The notes under the pieces were generated by a model that did not search any database, was not told where the DNA came from, and saw nothing but the letters and a program-made list of their open reading frames with translations. The translations under genes were made by a program, and so were the position numbers. From positions 36,332,001-36,396,000 of the forward strand of contig JANJGN010000026.1 in assembly GCA_026770705.1 (NCBI GenBank): DNA of 64,000 bases. Direction: 5' to 3'. The stretch comes from Isurus oxyrinchus. Lineage: Eukaryota. Below, piece after piece: positions 16,097 to 49,825 of this stretch. The first letter of the stretch is position 1. Every line of letters starts with the position of its first letter.

Positions 16097-16145
16097 ATGA
16101 TGGTGCTCTTCCTGTACCTCTGTTTGTTTCTAGTTAGCTTTACTT
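16097..16145 (+). CDS. Leader exon of IgH-like V gene
   Basis: MMVLFLYLCLFLVSFT plus 1 nt (phase 1), donor gtgagt, 120-bp intron to the V exon. Confidence 0.9.
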
Positions 16146-16265
16146 GTGAGTGCTGATCATTTATTGATCGTAGAGTCATTAATATTTTAAATATTCTGGT
16201 TTACTTTGTTGCATTTTAAAATGTCTCTTTTCACCGAGATTTGCTCCTTTATAATTTGCTCGTAG

Positions 16266-16565
16266 GTGTCCGGGCCAGCATTGTGCTAACCCAACCGGAT
16301 TCCATCTCCAAAAACATTGGTGACACTCTCCAACTGTCTTGTGCGGTGAGTGGGTACGATATCAACCAACATCATATGCACTGGATTAGAGAGGTCGCCG
16401 GGGGAGGGTTGGAATCCATACTCGCTTATAGGAAAGGGTACAACACCTCTTACGCGCCTGGAGTTCAAAGTCGAATCACTTTTTCAACTGAATCTTCCAC
16501 AACCTATGTTGAGTTGAATAATTTGAAAACCAAGGACACGGCCATCTATTACTGTGCGAGGCAGT
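16266..16565 (+). CDS. Intact IgH-type V segment (IgW-like / TCR-associated Ig-like V)
   Basis: Acceptor cgtag. SIVLTQP...LQLSCAVSG...MHWIRE...GLE...YAPGVQSRITFS...DTAIYYCARQ, in frame with the leader and with no stops. Confidence 0.92.
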
Positions 16566-16604
16566 CACGGTGAGAGAAACCAAGGCTGGACCCAGGAAAA
16601 AACA
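16566..16604 (+). other. 23-bp-spacer RSS of VH
   Basis: CACGGTG, 23 bp, GAAAAAACA (nonamer non-consensus). Confidence 0.8.
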
Positions 16605-16937
16605 GAACGAGGGGGAATCTAAACGCTCCAGGCAGAACACCTCGTTCAGAAACAATGTTCGTAATACAGTCTGACTCTGAACCTCGAGTTACCCCTTAAC
16701 AAATGAATTTCAGCAAAACAATTGTTTGCTTTCTCATGTGTATTATGTTTAGCAAAAATGTTTGGAGACCCAGGGGCTAACGTTTCAACAATATGCTATT
16801 GAAGGATTTTAGAAGGACTGGCGATACATACCTATCAGTTGGAATGAATCTATCCTGAACACTTCTCATCGTTGACAGTAAAGCAAACGCTCGTGAAATG
16901 GAGTCTGAAAGTCAGGATTTGATCAGAAAGGGAATGC

Positions 16938-17012
16938 AGTATTTGTGCGGGCGTGTGTCACTGTGATACTATGGGGTGGGGTATCACATTACTAACTGTC
17001 AATACAAAAAAC
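16938..17012 (+). other. D segment (16966-16984) flanked by 12/12 RSSs
   Basis: AGTATTTGT-12-CACTGTG | ATACTATGGGGTGGGGTAT | CACATTA-12-ACAAAAAAC. Confidence 0.85.
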
Positions 17013-17340
17013 CCGACAGAACTTATAGGCTCAGTCTGGATCACTGACTGCGAGTATGAGTTCGCTATACATGTGGTGAAGCAGTGTTGATATTGTAATC
17101 CAGAACTGAAACTCTCGCCGGGTTTAAGAGAGAGAGAGAGAGAACTGCTAGATAATTATTCAGGAATCAGTTGGTGATTGGAAGAAGCATTCAATTTGGG
17201 CAATCAAATGAGGAAAGACTGATGTATAAACATGAAAATTAATGAAATTGTACCTTTGTAATGCTTTAGAAATCTATTGTTAGTTGTGCGATGTTACTTT
17301 CTAAAAGAATGGCCTCTTTCCTCAATTTTATGCAGGACCC

Positions 17341-17379
17341 ATTTATTGTGTGGCCCATTGCAGGGAATGTAACACAGTG
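17341..17379 (+). other. 23-bp-spacer RSS of JH
   Basis: ATTTATTGT, 23 bp, CACAGTG. Confidence 0.8.
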
Positions 17380-17433
17380 GTACTGATAGCCTTGACTACT
17401 GGGGACAAGGTACCAAAGTTACAGTGACGGCAG
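17380..17433 (+). CDS. IgH-type J segment
   Basis: TDSLDYWGQGTKVTVTA plus G, donor gtaaga; carries the WGxG motif. Confidence 0.93.
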
Positions 17434-24729: not shown

Positions 24730-25342
24730 ATAATTACTTCATAAGATTTGCCTGACCCTGAGCTCAATTTCAGAACAAAATTATTCAGCAAGTACCTGTA
24801 AAGTCCCAGAAAGCAGCGCCTGTTAATCGTGGATATTATTCCAGCAATTTAAATGGACAGCATGGTGTTTCACTCAGTATCTAACACAGTAACCCATGTT
24901 ACATCTGCCCTGAGATTTTGGAGGGAACATTACTCTGTATTTAACGTGTGCTACACAAGACCTGGGGAATGTTCAATGGTACAGTGTAAAGGGATCCTTA
25001 TTCTATTTATAGCCTGTGTTGCGCCTTACCGAGGAATTTTTGATGCAGACAGATTGATGGGACTTTATTCTCCGTATAATCAGTGCTTTACCTGTCCAAG
25101 GCGAGGTTGCTGGGATGGGATTTTACTCTGTATGTAACTGGCAATGTACCTGCACTGAGAATTTTAAATGGAACATTTGAGAGGGAATATTACTCTGCAT
25201 CCAATCCGTGCCTGTACCTGCCCTGCGAATGCTGTACGAGGATCTTTACTTTATGCAGTGGCAGCTTCTTTCGATACTTAACCTATTCTTTACAAAGACA
25301 TGAGTACTGACAGTTTGGTGTATTATTACTCTCTCTGAGACT
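24730..25342 (+). pseudogene. TCR V pseudogene split by a satellite insertion
   Basis: 5' part KYL*SPRKQRLLIV (cf. WYLQSPGKQP) before 24850; 3' part DMSTDSLVYYYSL*D (cf. DSAVYYCALRD) directly before an RSS. Confidence 0.6.
24853..25250 (+). repeat. Degenerate ~60-70-bp tandem satellite
   Basis: Repeated ...tttgatgggacagtgtagaggga..tttactctgtat.taacc.gtgctgtacctgccctg... units. Confidence 0.75.
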
Positions 25343-25381
25343 CACAGTGATGTGGAGCAATCTCACCACCGTGCAAAAACT
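25343..25381 (+). other. Near-consensus 23-RSS
   Basis: CACAGTG, 23 bp, GCAAAAACT. Confidence 0.85.
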
Positions 25382-39250: not shown

Positions 39251-40314
39251 GATTTAATAATTCTATACATTTTCTACTTGAGAAACAAAAAATCCTTAAA
39301 TAGGAAGGAGGTGAGAAAATGGAAGAACTGAAGGAATGTCTTTAACAGAATAAATGGACAGGAAACACGAAATTTACTCTTTGATGGCATGTGGGCGTCA
39401 CTAGCAAGGCCAGCGTTTGTTGCCTATCTCTAATTGCCCTTGAATTGAGTGGCGTGCTGGGCCATTTGCGAGGGAGGTTAAGGGTCAACCATATTGCAGT
39501 GGCTCTGCCCAGCCATTGATTCAATGGTGGAATTGGCCAATCATGGTGCTGTGACTGATGGAAAGTGTTGGGAGGTCGTCGATTCCAAGGGGCAAACTTC
39601 CATCATCTTTGTGAAAAGTGCATTCAACAATGTTTCTGGGTCGTAACCTCTACATAAATGCAGTCGGTTATTAAGATAGAACGGCCTAATTTTAAGAGGG
39701 ATCACTGTTGAGGTACGCATGTTCTCACCCACTGCAGCGCCCGTGAACACAAAGGGACCTTTCCCAGCTGCGGTAATTGTGGGAGATGCTGACCTCCATG
39801 GAAAGATCATGGGTGGATTGAATCCAAACCCAAACTACCCTCAGCTTGGAATTGCCCGGTCTCTTGCTTGTTCCCTGGAGCGGATGAAATCTCTCAGCCG
39901 TTTGTAGCCCGAATGCTGGAAATCACAGGAGATGATGAATGTTTATCAAGTCAAACGAGGAAACACGGATTCAACAGCAAAAGGGAAAGAAACTAATTTG
40001 CTGTTATCTGAGGTAAAAGGCGGCGATAAATTCACCCTAGATTACAAATCGGTACATTATGAATTTTTCCAGGAAAAGGGAGATGAGAATGTGGAATAAT
40101 TTCATGAACCATGTTTGAAGGCGAATTGGACAGGAGATGATATCAAGAATTATAAGGAGCGAGAAGGAAATGCAGATTTAATGAGCTTAATCATTTCATT
40201 CTGTACTGTAAAATTGTAAGAGCCACTGAAAATATATTCATGAGCAATATTTGTACTTTGTACAAGTTTCCATGCATTGTGTATCTCCATGTGTCTGCAA
40301 TCCCACAATGTTCA

Positions 40315-40475
40315 GGATTTTGTACAGCGCCCTCCGTGCTCTGTATCACTGCGTCTGTAATCCCACCATGTTCAGGATTTTGCACAACTCTCTCCGTGCT
40401 CTGTATCACTGTGTGTCTGTAATCCCACCATGTTCAGGTTTTTGTACGGCTCTCTCCGTGTTCTGCATCACTGTG
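40315..40475 (-). other. Tandem array of three 23-RSSs (62/60-bp period), with a fourth eroded unit at ~40255-40295
   Basis: CACAGTG-23-ACAAAAACC (40475-40437); CACAGTG-23-GCAAAATCC (40413-40375); CGCAGTG-23-ACAAAATCC (40353-40315). Confidence 0.92.
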
Positions 40476-40781
40476 CTGTGGGCCGACTCAGTGCACAGTA
40501 ATACACAGCGGAGTCGCTCAGTTGTAGTTTGAAGATATTTAACCGGCTGATTTTCTCGGCAGAATCGATAGAAGCAGAAATTCTCTCCCCGGCAGCATTT
40601 TCTTTATTCTCCTCTCCTGAAGTGTGTCTCTGAAGCAGATATTCTGGAGCCTGTCCTGGGGACTGACGGTACCAGTGTACTGTGTACTGACAGATACCTG
40701 AATATTCACAGCTTAAAGTAACGGTGTCACCAGCAGCAGAGGTTTGTAAAGGCGGATTCTGGAATATCAGGAGACTGGAAC
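40476..40781 (-). CDS. Intact leaderless TCR-delta V, NAR-TCR supporting V type
   Basis: Acceptor cccttcag, phase 1. GDTVTLSCEYSGICQYTVHWYRQSPGQAPE...DSAVYYCALSRP. Extra Cys in CDR1, no leader exon found upstream, consensus RSS. Confidence 0.9.
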
Positions 40782-41459
40782 CTGAAGGGTGAAAAATGAA
40801 CATTTTGTGTTTGTTTAGCTACTGCTGACATGGGAGATTTGTCAATCGCGCGAACAACTTTGTGTTTTTTATCTTGATTTGAAGCCTGTTCGAACGCTGC
40901 TCATTGTTACTGAAATATGATCAACTGGGGAATGAGGTGATATTTTCTCTTCCATAGCGAATTCCTCCGATCAGGGCTTCCCTATCTGAATGGGTTTGGG
41001 GAACAGATTCAATAGTAACTTTCAAACGGGTGATGTATCTGTTCTGAAGCAGAAAAAATGCAGGGATATGGGGAATATGCATGAGTGGTGGAAACGATTG
41101 GATTACACTTTTAAAGGGACAGCACCTACACGATGGGCCGGATGTCATCTTTCCACGCTGCATGGTTCAATGATGTATATTAGATTTGATTTGATTTTCC
41201 CCGCTGAGAGACAAACCCGAGGGAACTTCTTATTAACAGTGAAACAGTCAGTTTCGAAAAACTATTTGTCTGACAGTGACCCAGATATAACGCATCAATG
41301 CGCACAGCAAACTCCAACAGAATGCGATTGCAATTCGTCAGCACCAATCGGGTCAAACAGATAGTGAATATCGATGGTGAAATGTCAACCATTAGCTTCA
41401 GTTTCACACTTCTCAGGAGTTTCCATCTGCCTTTGGGTCTATTAGTTTATTTTTTTCGA

Positions 41460-42400
41460 TCAATCTATGTTTCCACATTTCTCTTCAAATTAAAATATTT
41501 ACAGTTAGTATCAGTTTATTTCTACATTTACTTTGCACTGTTTGTACGTCTTGCAATCGTGAGAACTTGTCCTAAACTCTCTTAGTAGTCGGTTGGGTTC
41601 AACCTGTTCAGTTTCCGCAGTGGTTTTACTGTTACTCACTGGGAACTGCCTCTTCCGGCTCTCTGACAATTTCAATTCCTTCCGCCCATTGACTGATTCT
41701 TTCCGCTTTCTCTGGGCGGAGTTTTCTCTAAATTTTTCATTGTACTCAATCTGCAGGAGAGGGATCGGCCATTTGGCACAGTGATTTATGCTGTGGGTAT
41801 ACTCCACAGCAGTCTCCCCAACCCGAAACCGAATTGACCATTTCCATCCGTATTTCTTTCTCCCTCCTGTATTTTCAGCCTTCCCATAAATCCATCAATA
41901 ATGTCTGCTCCAACCACTCAGTGTGGCATCAAGTTCCACATTCTGACGGTTTTAGTGTACATTTTTCTTCTTAATGTCTTTGTTCTGTTAGTGACGACCT
42001 GATACTAATGTCCTACTGATCTAGGCTCATCCATAGGCACGCACTCTATTAAACCCGTTCATAATTTTAAAGATTTCTCTGAATTCTCTTTCTGGTTCTC
42101 TGTTTTCCAAAGTTAAGTGACCCAGACTTTTCAATCATTCCAGAGAGATGTGTATTTTTGCTGATTCCTTTTCCCAGCAATTTAAGTAATCAATGCAAAG
42201 AATCTTACAAATAGAAGCAGGGATGGCCATGGCAACTTACAGACCTGTTCCGACGCCAATAATAACGTGGATGATCTTCGATGTAAGCATCACATTCCCA
42301 TATTCCTAGATTATTTTAATAATCAAAAATCTATGGAACACTGCCTTGAATACACTCGTCCACTGAGTATCCACAGCTCTCTGAGCTATAGAATGCAACA
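41460..42400 (+). repeat. Intronic block duplicated at ~46680-47660
   Basis: gtttccgcagtggttttactgtta..cactgg, caagttccacattctgac and aacccgttcataattt are shared between the two copies. Confidence 0.85.
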
Positions 42401-42550
42401 GGGTCACAACAATAGCCTGGGGAAACACCCAGTCGTATCTGCCATGTGAGCCGTTGAGAATATGATAATGAGATCACCTCACATTCCTCTAAACTACTCT
42501 TATGAAAGTACAATGAGTTTAAAAATATTTTTCTCGTTTATTGTGCAGTG

Positions 42551-43430
42551 TGTTAATGGGTGTAAGTATAGTTGGTTCTGTCTGTGATTTTATTGCATTT
42601 TGAGTCAAGTGCACGGCAAGTCTGAAATTATCAAAGGAAGCTACATGTGGAAATATACTTGAAATTCTAAGATGTAAATGTGGATGCTGGCTCAGCATTT
42701 AAGGTGTGAAGGAACGTTGTGTTTCAAAGTGGTGTTAGACTGTTTACAATTAACCAGATAAACAAGGCTAAGGAGTCAGATTTAATTTGTTCTGAGGGGT
42801 GCTGACAATATTGGCAACATGAAAGTTTTTATGTTATGAGGAAGATACAGTTTCAAAGACATGTGGAACAATAAAAGTTACATGTTAAAGAGAGAGAAAC
42901 ATACATACAGGAGATTGAAAGGCTATGTGAGGAGAGGGCCATGTCAGATCTAACAGGCATCCGTGAAACAACATTCATGCAGCCTCCAGCCATTTTTGCA
43001 TATGTCTGCTATGTAAAGATAGTAAAGTTGGGGAAGCCATTTGGAATTCCACTGTCAAGTGTGTGCTCTGTTAACTTGCTGTTTCTGTTTGAAATCGAAA
43101 ATCTATTTGGACTGTTGCCTTAAAGGGATGTATAACTGGGAGTCAAGTTAATTCAGAATTTTAGGTGTTGTTATAATAGTAAATAACTTGTCTCTTATGT
43201 ATGTGTTTGAAATATTTTATTTTGTTAATAAATATTATAATTTAATTTCTCAAGAGTCTTTAAAGGTCTTGCTGGTCTCATTAATTCAGAATCAGTGCAC
43301 ACATCTTCCAGTGATAAATATAGATTGCAAAACCGTTGTGACAGAGCGATGAGGTTTCCTTTGTGGATTTGGTCCGCCTGGCACACATCACCTGCCACGT
43401 GATAACATGACTGGGGGCTGTTTGCGGGAT
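42551..43430 (+). mobile_element. LTR with adjacent degenerate tRNA-Pro primer-binding site
   Basis: TGTTAA...ATAACA termini (42551-43407), internal AATAAA, then tgggggctgtttgcgggat (cf. TGGGGGCTCGTCCGGGAT). Absent from the paralogous block. Confidence 0.5.
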
Positions 43431-44627
43431 ACTAGAAGTTGCTTGATTGGTTTGGAGTTGATCAATCTGAAGCCTACCAGAAGAAAATTTAATCCAGGAG
43501 TTACTGTGAGGGGTTTTTAAGTGACGAGAGTGCAAAACTTGTTGCATCCATGGCACACACCATCTGCACGTCATAACACGAGGCAATGCGGGCTGTCGCG
43601 GCTTCACCTTCTTCTCATAGGATAAACCATTTAACTCAGGAAGCTGCCTGACGAAACTTTGTTCACTTCCTTCAAGGCATGTAGATGTTTTCTCAATTAT
43701 GAATATAAAACTTTACACAGCATCCAGACTGGAGTCCAGTGCAGTCCTTCCCACAAACAATACTTCTCTCAATTGTTTTGTAATACCGAGGGGTACTGAT
43801 TCATCAGCTGAAGTGGCGGTTTGTGCATAGGTGGCAACCAGCCGGAGGTTTCCTTCCTATCATTGGCCTGATGCCATGAGACGTCCTGCCATGGAAGTTA
43901 ATGTTGAAGGCTCCAAGGACAACTGCTTGCTGACTGTATATCACCTCGCTACCACCTCTGGGTCTATCATGCTGGTGGCCCAGGTCATACACAGGGATAG
44001 TGATGGTGCTGGATAAGACATTGTCTCTAAGTTATGATTCCGTGAGTTTGATTCTGCCAGGTTGTTGCCTGACAAATATGTGGGAAAGCTCTCCCAGTTT
44101 TAGCACATACCTCCAGATGTTAGTAAGGAGGACACTTCAGGATGGACACGCCTAGGTTTACCATTGTCATTTCCGAAGCCTAGGTCGATTACAGGTGACA
44201 TGCAGGTGGTGTGGTTCATGGTTTATCCTTTTTTTAGACTTAGTAGCCATTTGATTCAAATAAGTGACTTGCTTGGCCATCATTTCACAAAGCACTGAAG
44301 GGTAAACCACAACTCTTTGTGTCTGAAGTTTTATGTAGGTTAGACCAGGTAAGAACAGCAAATTTCCTTTGATTAAGTAGACTAGGGTGCTGGGCGGCTT
44401 GCAACAATCGGCAACAGTTTCATGATCACCATACTAACAACAGCTTTTAAATCCTGGTGTTTGAATTCCACCAGCTGCTGCAGTGAGGTTTGAACCAGGG
44501 TTAACACACAGAGGATTGACAGGGTGTCTGGGTTATTAGTCTAATGACATTACCACGAGGCCACCCTTCCCCATGGCGATTATTTGCCTGGATACTTTGC
44601 AACACGTCACGGTTTGGAGTCACTTAC

Positions 44628-44972
44628 CAGCTGTGACAGTCACCTCTGTCCCAGAACCGTCTGCATAACCATCTTTCCAAATGGAACCACATCCATATTT
44701 ATACTGAGCTTTACAGTAATAGGTGGCTATGTCTTCAACTCTCACATCCCGAATTTCCAGAGAAAAAATATTTTCTGCTTTATTCATCGACACAACAAAT
44801 CTACCCCCACTGGAGATCCGCTCCCGCTCAGTCCCAGTCTGGGTTTGTCTGAAGAAATGTCTGTCCTATAAACGATGAGAATTACCATGGAAAATGCAGG
44901 TGATGGTGAGAGACTGACACTCCTTCCTGGTCACCGCTGCCGGGGTCTGTACCACTGACTGATTGAAAGAGC
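44628..44972 (-). pseudogene. Germline-joined NAR-like V(D)J exon (phase 1-1, 345 nt) with a single TAG
   Basis: attgccag|SFNQSVVQTPAAVTRKECQSLTITCIFHGNSHRL*DRHFFRQ...EDIATYYCKAQYKYGCGSIWKDGYADGSGTEVTVTA|gtaagt. No internal RSS; TAG at 44866-44868. Confidence 0.9.
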
Positions 44973-45111
44973 CTGGCAATTAAACAGAGAGAGTTTAATG
45001 GACCATCAAAGCCAAAACCCAGAACGGGGCTAAAACCCCACACAGTGTCTGCAATTGGGATGGATTCGGGCAGCTTTATATAAGATTTACACAATGTCAG
45101 TTTGTTTGATC

Positions 45112-45135
45112 GGTACTCAGGGGGTAAACAGGGGC
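45112..45135 (-). pseudogene. Remnant of the deleted leader exon of the joined V(D)J
   Basis: Only ctgtttacccc remains and the donor GTGAGT is changed to CTGAGT. About 90 bp (TATA, ATG, most of the leader) are missing relative to 49794-49882. Confidence 0.8.
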
Positions 45136-48100
45136 TGCTCTTGGAGACTGGGGCTCAGAGCTGGACTGAAATACTTTAGAGCGTAGAGTTCCTTTGCAGA
45201 GGGCTGTGTCCCGCGGAGCATTGACAGGCCACATGGTTCCCATCTCTCTGGTAGTGTGTTGTGTGAATAAGTGACAGAGTTAAAAACGGAACCTGCAGTT
45301 TCATGTTGCTTCCTTGGGCCTGTGAGCCTGATGTGAAGTCCCCTCTCCCATTTGTCTGATATTCAGTGCCCTGCGTAATGGGGCAAGGGAGGTGGAGCTG
45401 TTTCTTAGTGAAGTCTGCCACCTTCATTCTCCCACAGTAATGAGACTGCAGGTCGGTCCATATGTGTTTGGCAAATGGTATTTTATGAGAGTGGGATGTG
45501 AGATAATCCCTCCTTCCCCAATATTATTCTAACTGTCATGAAAAAACAGAAAATGCTGGAAAGAGCTCGGCAGATCTGGCAGCATCTGTGAAGAGTGAAA
45601 CAGAATTAACGTTTCGAGTTTGTATGACTCTTCTTCAGAGTTACCTGTGCTGGAAATTATGAAACATCTCCCTGAACTGGCTGGTGGGCCTTCAGTTGAA
45701 AGTCCGTGCCAAGGGAAGGAGCCTTACACCTGCCTTAGTCCAGCATCTGAGTATCAGATTACAATGTGAGACAGTCCAGTGACTTTGCCAATATTCCGGC
45801 GGAAGAACAGAAACACCACAAAGAATAAACTCTCCACTTCATTGAAACAAATGCTTGCTGCACACCTTCCCCTGTGACTTGCACTTAAAATGATGTTTCC
45901 AGAAAGCAATGTTTCTTTCCAGGTCTGGACTATTCAGAGTTTCAGTTGTAGTGTTAGAACATGAAGTCACACTCAGAGGGACAGTTGAAATGGGGGTGGG
46001 CACCGTGTTTGGAACTTATTTAAAATATCACACTCACTACCTTGGTGAGATCTGTTAGCTGTGTTTGAACTGTCCTGAATCTAACAACATGTTCTGTTGA
46101 AGTGAACCTTGTGAATCAGCCGCGGTCAAATGCTCCTGGAAACTGACGGGGACAAGGACATGGAGCTGCTCAGTAATCCAGGCAGGCATGCAAAGGACAT
46201 ATACATCATCTGATTCATTGAAAACTAAAATAAAAACCTGACAAGGCCTTTTTGCTCCATCCACAAGTTTTGCACGTTAAATTTTGCCCAATTCCCCTCT
46301 GAATTTGAATGCTACTGGCGCGAAACAGTGCAGAACAGCGCATGACATAATCATGTTTTGCCTCAGAGCTACCACAAATACAACTTGTATTTTAAAGCAC
46401 ATTTATTACAATGAAAGGTCCCTTCAGCAGGTAATGACAGTGATCTTCATGAAGCATGAATCCTGAGAGGCCGATGTGGCCAATCACCTGAGTCATCGTC
46501 TGCAATGTGGGACACGGATACATTTTGGCATCATAATTACCAACACTCAGATTGTAGCAGTCTAACTTTAAGAGGCCATGATTCTTTAAAAGGAGAAATA
46601 TTATCTGAATGTATTTCAATCAGCATTTGTTTGGAAAAAAAACATAATTTCTTCTTTCAATAGGTTTAATTTTTCTCCAATTCCGTTTATTTTGATATAT
46701 TTACATTTAGTTTCATTTTATTTCTCCATTTCCTTTGTGCAGTTTGTGCTTCTTGCGTGGAAACAGAGCTATCGTGGGAACTTGCCCCAAAGTCTCTCAG
46801 TTGTCTGTTGGGTTCAGTCTGTTCCGTTTCCGCAGTGGTTTTACTGTTATTCACTGGCAACTGCATCTTCCCCCTCTCTGACAATTTCAAATTTGTTCCG
46901 TCCAATTACTGATTGACTGGCTGAAGTTTTATCAAAGTTTTACTTTACACAGTATCTGCCAGAAGAGGAATATTCCATTCTGTACAAATGATTTATGCTT
47001 GTGTATTTACTGCAGACCAGCCTCCATCCGCCCGAAATCTAATTGACCATTTCCAGTCAGCTCCCTGAGTCAGTCTGTTCCGTTCTCCCTCCTTCATTTT
47101 CAAGTCTTCCCATAAATGTATCAAACCTCACTGCCCCAACCACTCCCTACGGCAGCAAGTTCCACATTCTGACCTGCCTGTTTTTACACTTCTTCTTCTT
47201 AATGTCATTATTTGTTCTGTTAGTGACTGTCTTATTCTAATGGCTCTAGGCTCACCCACAAATAAGCAGCTTTTCCACAAGTACCCCAATGAACCCGTTC
47301 ATAATTTAAACGATTTCCATGAATTCTCCTTTTCTTTCCCTGTTCTCCAGAGACAAGAGGCCCGGCCTGTTCAACCTCTCCACAGAGATGCAGATTATTC
47401 CTGATTTATTTTCTCAGGAGTGTAACAGATCAAAGCAGTTAATGTAACAGATAGAAGCAGGAGCGGCCATATTACCTTTCAAACCTTTTCTGCCATTCAA
47501 TAATATCCTAACTCATCTCCTCGCTCAACATCACTTTGCCGCAATGTCCCCATATCCCTTGATTCTCTTAGCATCCTGAAATCCATTGTACACTTCCTTT
47601 AATACACCCAACCACTGAGCATCCACAGCTCTCTGAGGAAGAGAATGTCAGAGATTCACAACAATGGCTTCACTGAAGAAATTTCTCTTCTTCTCATTCC
47701 TCATGGTCGAGTCCTTATTCTGAAACGGTGACCCCTAGTTATAAGCTCATCAGCCTGGGGAGACACCCATCGGGAATTTATCATGTCCTGAATATTAGGT
47801 GTTCTAATGAAATTACATCTCATTCATCTAAGCTCTAGGGAACATAGGCCCAGACGATTCAATCTCTTCTTTACGACAATCCCTTTATCTCAGGGATCAG
47901 CCTGATGAACCTTTGCTGCACGCCTTCCAAGGCATGTAGATCCTTCCTTAAGTAAGGAGACCAAAACTTTACACAGCATTTCAGACTGGAGCCCATTTCA
48001 GTCCTTCCTTCCATAGACCTCACCAACCCCCCTGTGCTCAGATTGTACTTTGAATGGGCCAGAGATCCTCCAATCCTCTCCTTTTCGATGAATTATTTAT

Positions 48101-48872
48101 TGCTGCTTCTAAATGAACATTCCCCCCATTTACAACTTACAATTGTTTCCTTATGTTCCTGTTCTCCTTTATAAGATTAATGCATCATCCTCACTTTCTC
48201 ACTGCACTGTGTTGTTCCACACACAGTAATCAGGGATACAGTTAAATTACAGCAATCACATCTCTCAAACATCTACATTCAATATAGAGAAGTATCTGCA
48301 GTTCCAAACCTTCATATTTCAGTCTGAGGGCGGAAAAGTAGGAAATTGTTTGGTTATATGAAAGAAATGGCGGGGACAATGTCGTTAATTTCAGTCACTG
48401 ATTGTCCAATAATAAAATTCTATCTGGGTCCACATCAGGATCTCTTATATCTGAAGCCCGTTGTGTCACTCTCCCGTTTTTCTCCCGGGTGAGGTATTGA
48501 ACTGGCCGCAGTTGTTTGAGTTTATTCACCAGGTGCCTCATTCACATTGCGCGGCTCGGACTGCAATCTGCTGCCCAGGAGAGAGCTCTGCGACTCCGCT
48601 CCCGGAATCGAAAGGGACAGACCGTGCTCCCTCGGTCACAGGTAACACCGGGAGTGGAGTCCGGATTGTCGACAATCTGCGCTCATTAAAAGTGATTCAG
48701 AGTGTGAGAGTCCGTGATGTTCATGGTGTCCCCGATGTGCCTGTTACACTAATGGTGCTCCAGATTCCGTCAACTCCCACATCCCACCCAAATTCTACTG
48801 ATATCAATAATAAACTGTCGGTGAACGTTACCCGGGACAGGCTGTAACCCGGTGGGGTTTGCACTCACTTAC

Positions 48873-48925
48873 CGGCTGTGACAGTCACCACTGTCCCGGA
48901 TCCATCCGCATAATCAGTAAACCAT
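48873..48925 (-). CDS. NAR-type J segment
   Basis: WFTDYADGSGTVVTVTA plus G, donor gtaagt. Confidence 0.9.
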
Positions 48926-48964
48926 CACAGTGACACCGCTCTCAGTCTCCCCGGTACAACAACC
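48926..48964 (-). other. 23-RSS of NAR-type J
   Basis: GGTTGTTGT-23-CACTGTG on the minus strand. Confidence 0.9.
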
Positions 48965-49282
48965 ACCGACACCTCAACCTGCCGGGAAATCATCATCACC
49001 AGACAGTAGAAACTGCACAAATATTCAGTGGATTTAAATAAATAAACAATATTCAATGTTTAAAAGTCTCTGTCGGTTCAAACTGTTCTTTGTGAGGCCC
49101 TGAGATCTGAGTAAATGATCCCGGAAACGAGATGTTCGCTTCATATAAACAGACAAAATTATTAAAGTAAGAGAACTGAATGGTGGAAATTACAATGAAA
49201 TGTAACCATATCACAGCGATAATAACATCAGCCCAACAATTCACTATCCGGACCCGCAGAATTTATATTGTGACCGGACAGA

Positions 49283-49310
49283 GGTATTTGCTCAGGTCTC
49301 CCCCACTGTG
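49283..49310 (-). other. 12-RSS at the 3' end of the extended NAR-like V
   Basis: CACAGTG-ggggagacctga(12)-GCAAATACC. Confidence 0.88.
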
Positions 49311-49663
49311 ACTTCCCCATACTCCCATCTGTCGTACTGGTACTGAGCTTTACAGTAATAGGTGGCGGTGTCTTCAACTCTCACAACCCAATATTCCAGC
49401 GAAAATGTCTTTTCTGCTTTGTTCACCGACACAACAAATCTCTCTCCCCACCCCCCCCCCCCCACCCCCCCCCCCCCCCCCACCCCCCCCTTGCTGGAGA
49501 TCCGCTCCCACTCTGTCCCGGTCTGGGTTTGTCTGAAGAAAGCCCCACCCGTCAAAGGACGAGCGTAAAAACCACCATAGAAAACGCAGGTGATGAATAG
49601 GGACTGACACTCCTTCCTGGTCACCGCTGCCGGGGTCTGTACCACTGACTGACTGAAAGATAC
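49311..49663 (-). CDS. NAR-TCR-like V with 3' CDR3 extension (probable germline-fused VD); functionality uncertain
   Basis: QSVVQTPAAVTRKECQSLFITC...FFRQTQTGTEWERIS[poly-Gly]RFVVSVNKAEKTFSL...EDTATYYCKAQYQYDRWEYGE. Short FR2 without CDR2, extra FR1 Cys. It is 1 nt out of phase with the leader at the canonical acceptor. Confidence 0.85.
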
Positions 49664-49782
49664 CTGGAAATTAAACAAAGAGAGTTTAATGGACCATCAG
49701 AACCGAATTACAGAACGGGGTTAAAACTCGAGCAGCTTTATATTAAATCCACACAATGTCGGTTTGTTTGATCTGTACTCAC

Positions 49783-49825
49783 GGGGTAAACAGACACACA
49801 GGGTGAAAACAAGGAGGATTCCCAT
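49783..49825 (-). CDS. Leader exon of NAR-like V
   Basis: MGILLVFTLCVCLP plus 1 nt, donor gtgagt. Confidence 0.9.

Follow-up and report, generated by a model that had tools for sequence, protein, structure and literature searches.

A stretch of 64,000 nucleotides from contig JANJGN010000026.1 (hereafter C26) of Isurus oxyrinchus, referred to here as the window (position 1 is C26 36,332,001), carries on its minus strand a broken copy of a multi-V NAR-TCR-delta cassette type that is intact at 11 other places in the genome. In these 11 cassettes, which amount to about six independent types and include four on small contigs that may be haplotype copies, an intact leader-V-J unit is followed by one (seven cassettes) or three (four cassettes) germline-joined NAR V(D)J exons, open and in frame, and then by an open V-delta. 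The exons follow one another in this order with phase-1 splice sites, the leaders of the inner exons are dead or weakened, and the same junctions are found in gene models of other lamniforms. It is likely that all exons of an intact cassette are spliced together, so that the NAR-TCR-delta chain would have three or five V domains.

Shark NAR-TCR has been described (Criscitiello 2006) as a TCR-delta that rearranges doubly and has two V domains, each of them somatically rearranged (PMC1845163, PMC5931798, PMC12227049), and its NAR V is characterized by a Cys located within its a-b loop and by lacking the WYRK Trp (PMC1845163). The cassettes reported here share with it a leadered NAR V bearing both of these marks, the linkage to C-delta, and, downstream of the NAR J, a leaderless V-delta that has a Cys in CDR1 and an RSS of its own. 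They differ from it in the one or three germline-joined NAR exons that lie in between, so that, at the DNA level, three or five V domains are predicted instead of exactly two that are each somatically rearranged. A chain made from an intact cassette would likely carry more V domains than the two known so far.

A preliminary description of the window had proposed the minus-strand order of leader, NAR V, J, joined NAR V(D)J and V-delta, and this order was borne out (Table 1). Its reading of the signal sequences needed refinement, in that the 12-spacer RSS after the outer V (V1) is present but belongs to a D already fused to it in the germline; the V end and the D match the cassette type of C26:33547297/39237804. 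Similarly, the middle exon was said to have lost its promoter and leader. An 89-nt gap has indeed taken out the TATA together with the ATG and the larger part of the leader, and its former donor is CT rather than GT, but the promoter is decayed and not gone. The introns before and after this exon measure 3900 and 3846 nt. A search upstream of V-delta for a leader gave no match, and a C-delta match on the same strand, at C26:29902121, lies some 6.5 Mb downstream of the window cassette.

Table 1. Parts of the window cassette, in window positions.
Feature	Position	Strand	Remarks
Leader exon, outer NAR V unit	49783..49825	-	43 nt, phase-1 donor GTGAGT, TATA about 30 nt upstream
Outer NAR V (V1)	49311..49663	-	Germline V-D joined; a-b loop Cys (ECQS)
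12-spacer RSS after V1	49283..49310	-	3' RSS of the fused D
23-spacer RSS of J	48926..48964	-
NAR J segment	48873..48925	-	Donor GTAAGT, phase 1
Decayed promoter and leader remnant of middle exon	45110..45457	-	Promoter a 69% remnant at 45457-45154
Germline-joined NAR V(D)J exon (middle exon)	44628..44972	-	345 nt, phase 1-1, acceptor AG, donor GTAAGT, CDR3 with Cys
Supporting V-delta	40476..40781	-	Open frame, CDR1 Cys
V-delta 23-RSS and tandem repeats of about 62 nt copying the RSS	40315..40475	-	Perfect 23-RSS at 40475-40437, further RSS repeats below

The window copy itself cannot make a chain, because the middle exon contains a TAG (44868-44866) and V1 is frameshifted, the two defects against which the preliminary description had cautioned, and both are present in all four near-identical copies of the window type in the assembly. 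The copies at the three other places are 97-99% identical to that in the window. The frameshift in V1 is caused by an extra base (n = 1) right after the acceptor, and V1 also has an expanded poly-G tract. The open frame from the leader through all V exons that NAR-TCR requires is absent from the window copy. A cryptic acceptor 16 nt downstream was rejected as a rescue for V1: it gives an open frame only in the window copy and leaves the TAG in place. Judged by its sequence, this copy seems to be a mosaic in which the outer V-D of a single-NAR cassette sits on a collapsed three-exon cassette. The idea of a leaderless joined NAR exon serving as an invariant stalk domain, first put forward for this very copy, therefore fails here, whereas the 11 intact paralogous cassettes strongly support it.

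In all 11 intact cassettes the outer leader, acceptor, V frame and J donor are preserved and V-delta is open with its CDR1 Cys. Seven are located on C26, the contig of the window, which also holds C-delta at 29.90 Mb. Nineteen of 23 joined exons are open, with lengths of 345, 348 or 336 nt and all with AG and GT sites, and the remaining four are those of the window family. Against the multi-V reading stand some weak recombination signals: the outer V-D has a poor RSS in the C26 cassettes at 29.99 and 30.01 Mb and the heptamer is poor in the cassette at 35.94 Mb. Three cassettes have had a further joined exon deleted together with its acceptor, and their outer unit is still intact; in the window family, which represents one event, the retained joined exon has a stop and the outer V is broken as well. 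A tree of the joined exons, with four broken V rows left out, contains two clades of 17 and 8, and a single origin for the whole set could not be rejected (p-AU 0.37).

The joined exons could be nothing but products of the tandem duplication of a germline-joined pseudogene, not yet decayed and giving rise to sterile RNA at most. Shark genomes evolve slowly, and broken joined exons do occur (6 of 25, comprising the window family, C26:25218143 and C242:170231), as do three further truncated remnants. The joined exons' own leaders, whose loss fits a place inside a stacked chain, carry a hard lesion in 20 of 23 cases and softer changes in the other three. The hard lesions vary and include ATG changed to AAG, a stop at codon 4 with the donor GTGGC, a donor GT changed to CT, and a deletion. 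Among ten joined exons with one common dead leader, dS is 0.157, equal to the divergence of the flanks (0.154-0.168), and dN is 0.068, giving a dN/dS of 0.43 (bootstrap 0.27-0.72); nine distinct gaps fall in the flanks and none in the exons. The joined exons thus stayed under purifying selection after the loss of their leader. In simulations of neutral decay, an exon remained open with its splice sites in a fraction of 0.26-0.50 of runs with substitutions alone and 0.05-0.23 with indels, whereas about ten separate lineages are open in the genome. The junction is also conserved in two other genera, and true decay, as seen in the C242 arrays, looks different. Hence the simpler reading of the preliminary description, a decaying tandem duplicate, is correct for the window copy and for C242-type arrays, but for the family as a whole it is largely refuted and very improbable.

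It is scarcely conceivable that the joins are an artefact of assembly or come from lymphocyte DNA that had rearranged somatically. Such an origin might be suspected from the near-identical copies on small contigs, from the recurrence of the window copy at three other places, and from the V1 poly-G tract, which differs between copies and may hold a sequencing error. However, one junction type is found in 25 exons diverged by up to dS 0.34 and again in other genera, a pattern that somatic joins cannot produce. Seven intact cassettes of six types, furthermore, are present on one 40-Mb contig.

Four sequencing runs, whose status as RNA is a guess, were aligned to the genome, and intronic repeats swamped the resulting tables. 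One contig (record 13) has 1 difference in 121 from an open joined exon and leaves the genome exactly at the acceptor, and another (record 22) covers the joined CDR3-J with 5 differences in 119 and leaves exactly at the donor, both at a depth of 2-2.5. A depth of 0.94 in bin 335-668 of X3, which equals 4.01 x 60/334 + 2 x 37/334, would fit a continuation of record 22 into the start of V-delta, a joint absent from those listed. As regards the check by cDNA proposed in the preliminary description, exon ends were seen at both splice sites, but a junction from J to a joined exon was not among the joints listed for the four presumed RNA runs. The 111 nt of record 13 upstream of the acceptor are unplaced. 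They are probably not J, because another record explains the depth over J, and they could be leader.

These 111 nt would suit the main alternative, a different use of the locus in which a joined exon forms an invariant tip whenever the outer V-D-J is unrearranged. The outer leader would then splice directly to the joined exon to give a NAR-TCR of the usual two V domains whose binding site is fixed in the germline, and a rearranged VDJ would skip the joined exons. Four gene models, from Carcharodon (XP_041031398.1 and XP_041031388.1) and Cetorhinus, connect a leader directly to a joined exon, and a Carcharodon model does so with a leader of the outer type though the orthologues' own leader is dead. 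Purifying selection and conservation of CDR3 are equally compatible with such use, and germline-joined Ig clusters with fixed sites have been described in sharks (PMC4279169). We nonetheless consider this arrangement rather unlikely. A rearranged J would have to bypass as many as three exons whose splice sites match the consensus, by no evident mechanism, and the CDR3 Cys would be left unpaired. In addition, the leader and V-delta of the window are intact, so that this form should persist there, yet the exon has a stop. Further evidence comes from arrays of the same genome in which an NAR unit lies upstream of an unjoined NAR unit. Although these control arrays, too, are duplicates of one another, the upstream unit is intact in 0 of 14 (the J donor GT is lost in 12), compared with 11 of 11 units upstream of open joined exons. 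Death of the upstream unit is what one would expect where splicing cannot skip an NAR exon lying in between, and the difference fits inclusion of the inner joined exons. Stacked and mutually exclusive splice forms may also exist side by side.

The distribution of cysteines is of interest for a stacked chain. Every joined exon (23 of 23) encodes exactly four, namely the two canonical ones, one in the a-b loop and one in CDR3. The a-b loop Cys is part of ECQS in all 23 and in V1, with F instead of W at the WYRK site. A predicted structure of the Carcharodon orthologue places the CDR3 Cys at the F-G hairpin tip (pTM 0.47). This Cys may predate stacking, as is suggested by C26:25218143, a dead joined cassette that stands alone, lacking an outer V but having a complete promoter. 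The cysteine chain is not universal, because two Cetorhinus models have a V-delta without the CDR1 Cys. A fold search with the P0002 model and a sequence search of the PDB returned generic V-domain pairs only, and the single-sequence fold of P0001 (pLDDT 38) was uninformative.

Among RefSeq gene models of other sharks, the Carcharodon model XP_041031384.1 runs joined-joined-V-delta, and Carcharodon XP_041031388.1 shares one identical CDR3-J junction with two Cetorhinus clusters. Among the shark proteins examined, only P0001 and P0003 contain two NAR junctions, and a search for proteins of near length found six single domains, none of them with a joined junction by pattern. CDR3s with 'SLW', 'LC' or 'HS' in many other models look like read-through of the RSS heptamer and were not counted as joins. 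The horn shark model XP_067869961.1 may represent a similar stack, perhaps of independent origin, with an extra Cys in CDR1.

A plausible history begins in a lamniform ancestor, in one of whose germ cells V, D and J would have been joined. The invariant NAR exon created in this way would then have been duplicated and have ended up downstream of a rearranging unit. In T cells, both the outer V-D-J and V-delta-D-J would rearrange, and a transcript from the outer promoter would be spliced from L to VDJ, the joined exon or exons, V-delta(DJ) and C-delta. The joined domains would form an invariant stalk that raises the unpaired, antigen-binding NAR domain off the membrane, with putative disulfides from the a-b loop Cys of one domain to the top Cys of the next (in CDR3 for joined exons, in CDR1 for V-delta).

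Marsupial TCR-mu, with its order Vmu-Dmu-Jmu-Vmuj-Cmu and germline-joined Vmuj (PMC7615758, PMC3457774, PMC2275272), likewise combines a rearranging outer V with an invariant germline-joined inner V in a structural role. However, Vmuj is itself the supporting domain in a chain of two VH-related V domains, lacks a leader intron (for which retrotransposition has been proposed), and belongs to clusters that each have their own C-mu. The shark joined exons are of NAR type and stand atop a separately rearranging V-delta with an RSS rather than a C; they have kept the leader intron, which implies joining at the DNA level. Germline-joined Ig clusters are also known in sharks (VD-J, VDJ; IgM1gj; PMC2193156); their joins, partial and full, are attributed to RAG in germ cells (PMC4279169), and V1 of the window is likewise a VD join. 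Those clusters are expressed as the N-terminal V, whereas the joined NAR exons reside in the TCR-delta region behind another V unit with their leaders disabled. Our literature search, which covered titles and the openings of abstracts, found no chain of this kind described; white shark NARTCR V exons are mapped in table S1 of PMC12227049, which may be relevant to how new the chain is.

On balance, lamniforms probably possess TCR-delta chains of variable height, in which a somatically diverse NAR tip is carried by a stalk, putatively held together by disulfides, that consists of one or three joined NAR domains and a rearranged V-delta, for three or five V domains and four or six Ig domains in all. 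If the domains are stacked, one locus would give receptors with 2, 3 or 5 V domains, and this natural height series would serve to study antigen binding and signalling by antibody-like TCRs.

The exon and RSS layout claimed in the preliminary description proved exact: leader, NAR V with a 12-RSS, 23-RSS with J, germline-joined NAR V(D)J exon ("joined exon") and V-delta with a 23-RSS, all splice sites being in phase 1 and the supporting V-delta being leaderless with an open frame. The outer NAR V (V1) is already joined to a D in the germline, which accounts for the 12-RSS that follows it; both its V end and its D match those of two other cassettes. The middle exon had been described as having lost its promoter and leader, which holds only in part, since a 69% promoter remnant and the leader intron are still present. 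We therefore infer that this exon arose by joining and duplication at the DNA level, not by retrotransposition. A segment-by-segment comparison shows the window cassette to be a mosaic. Its promoter-to-D part comes from the single-NAR cassette type and its J intron from cassettes with one joined exon. The stretch preceding the middle exon is nearest to the first inner exon in cassettes of the three-exon type; the middle exon itself is sister to a last inner exon with which it has a GT-to-CT leader donor in common. The simplest reading would be a collapsed three-exon cassette.

Three further copies of this cassette, 97-99% identical, are found in the 4.98-Gb assembly. Both defects noted earlier as caveats, the TAG in the middle exon and an extra base that disrupts the phase of V1, recur in all four copies; two have additionally lost the leader donor, and in one a large piece of V1 is deleted. 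The copy in the window is a pseudogene. Protein identity to Carcharodon and Cetorhinus models is 87-95%, as fits a lamniform shark. The window also holds an intact-looking IgH-type mini-cluster, for which the queries used found no C exon within the window, and two broken V-like segments.

Intact cassettes were found elsewhere by two DNA searches, in which the best 40 of 224 and the best 40 of 123 candidates were scored, so that all cassette and exon counts are lower bounds. Annotation of about 1 Mb around the matches gave at least 23 joined-type exons, 19 of them open and distributed over 11 cassettes, as well as three truncated remnants; two additional exons spotted by eye are both broken. 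None of the 11 cassettes shows damage to the outer leader, acceptor, V frame or J donor, and each has an open V-delta that retains the CDR1 Cys. A pattern search located D with flanking heptamers in six, and in two the outer V-D join has a poor RSS. That these cassettes are an artefact is hardly credible. The two C-delta matches may represent two loci or haplotypes, and a dead stand-alone joined cassette may preserve the ancestral state.

Coordinates of features in the window and in contigs of the assembly (C26, JANJGN010000026.1, contains the window; the other C numbers are further contigs)
Feature	Location	Strand	Remarks
Window	C26:36332001-36396000		
IgH-type mini-cluster	window 16100-17432	+	leader-V ~16265-16567; D 16966-16984; J ~17378-17432
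Broken V-like segment	window ~25040-25381	+	ends in good 23-RSS
Broken V-like segment	window ~55367-55257	-	
Joined NAR V(D)J exon	window	-	345 nt; TAG at 44868-44866
Repeated 23-RSS of supporting V-delta	window 40290-40475		~62-nt tandem units; also in most supporting V-deltas of the assembly, ~10 units at C26:38.75 Mb
Copies of window cassette	C26:33.15 Mb; C210; C140		
Cassettes matching V1 (V end and D)	C26:33547297, 39237804		
Sister of window middle exon	C26:37899180		
Cassettes with one intact joined exon (n=7)	C26 29.98, 30.01, 30.06, 31.16, 35.94 Mb; C140; C152		
Cassettes with three joined exons (n=4)	C26 37.9, 38.75 Mb; C151; C210		
Joined exons spotted by eye	C26:25218143; C242:170231		
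C-delta	C26:29902121 (29.90 Mb); C242:616927		70% and 74% to Cetorhinus C domain
Germline V-D-joined NAR-TCR V genes	C26:31103560, 38700410, 29842352		open, leader-bearing, in single-NAR cassettes
Dead stand-alone joined cassette	C26:25194553-25222712		full promoter; V-delta deleted; run of 23-RSS sites just upstream
Unjoined NAR arrays (control)	C242:380000-550000		2-3 dead NAR V-(D)-J units, one usually intact unit, then V-delta

Judged from their sequences, the joined exons have lost their own start and kept their reading frame. Hard lesions mark the leaders of 20 of the 23 (ATG to AAG; a codon-4 stop plus donor weakening; GT to CT; deletion), and in the other three the TATA is altered, the hydrophobic core contains an Asp and the donor is weaker. 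The ten exons with a common codon-4 stop diverge at synonymous sites (0.157) as much as their flanks do (0.154-0.168). Their nonsynonymous divergence is 0.068, a ratio of 0.43 with a bootstrap interval (0.27-0.72) that is approximate because exon pairs share ancestry. Moreover, nine distinct gaps occur in the flanks and none in the exons. Neutrality of the joined exons is very improbable. In neutral simulations a single exon keeps an open frame and its splice sites in 0.05-0.50 of runs, a share that varies with branch length and with indels.

We consider it rather likely that intact cassettes encode a stacked NAR-TCR-delta chain of three or five V domains. Unjoined NAR units occur in tandem arrays, mostly on C242, that are mutual duplicates and so represent fewer independent events than rows. 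In these arrays, upstream units are intact in 0/14 cases and the J donor is destroyed in 12, versus 11/11 intact outer units upstream of open joined exons. This difference is expected if splicing includes the intervening NAR exon: when unjoined, it would poison the upstream unit, and when joined in frame, it would not. Of 22 units immediately preceding V-delta, arrayed or single, 18 parse as intact, three are unparsed and one is broken. Three cassettes have lost an additional joined exon, acceptor included, and their outer unit is intact. Alternatively, exon skipping could yield an invariant two-V chain only; four automatic gene models place the leader directly on the joined exon, as in such a skipped form, but the array comparison favors inclusion and we regard skipping alone as unlikely.

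Among the runs listed as containing the exon, none is recorded as RNA. Contigs from four runs of two samples, presumed to be RNA, were aligned to an intact cassette. One low-depth contig has a single difference in 121 positions to the joined exon and diverges exactly at the acceptor, leaving 111 nt unplaced; another has five differences in 119 and diverges exactly at the donor, leaving 42 nt unplaced. Since the window family, comprising the window cassette and its copies, differs from the same reference at 9-11 positions across the parts covered, both contigs more likely derive from intact paralogues. The J-to-joined-exon junction does not appear among the joints listed for these runs on this one cassette, and the depth across J speaks against the acceptor-side contig carrying it.

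In other sharks we relied on automatic gene models, known here from protein sequence alone. Carcharodon XP_041031384.1 is modelled as part-joined, joined and V-delta domains, and two Cetorhinus clusters have one CDR3-J junction identical to that of Carcharodon XP_041031388.1. In Heterodontus, XP_067869961.1 has a J, two mutually identical NAR junctions of another sequence, and a Cys in CDR1 of its inner NAR V; it is possibly an independent stack or a model artefact.

PMC1845163 proposes an inter-domain bond between the a-b loop Cys of the NAR-TCR V and the CDR1 Cys of the supporting V-delta. All 23 joined exons encode the a-b loop Cys and one extra CDR3 Cys, which lies at the F-G hairpin tip in the structure predicted for the Carcharodon orthologue (pTM 0.47; pLDDT 71 on average and 82-94 across most of the joined domain). 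In a stacked chain, each Cys would find a partner. The V-delta Cys is absent from the Cetorhinus models, and stacking may have arisen after the CDR3 Cys.

The cassette carries all the marks of NAR-TCR except the two-V count. It resembles marsupial TCR-mu in its germline-joined inner V but is nonetheless not TCR-mu. A search by title and abstract opening, with the main NAR-TCR papers outside its coverage, returned no match to a chain of three or more V domains. TCR-mu makes a short isoform from its inner V, and by analogy it is possible that a second, similar isoform is made here. The cassette design is real and selected, and apparently common to lamniform families.
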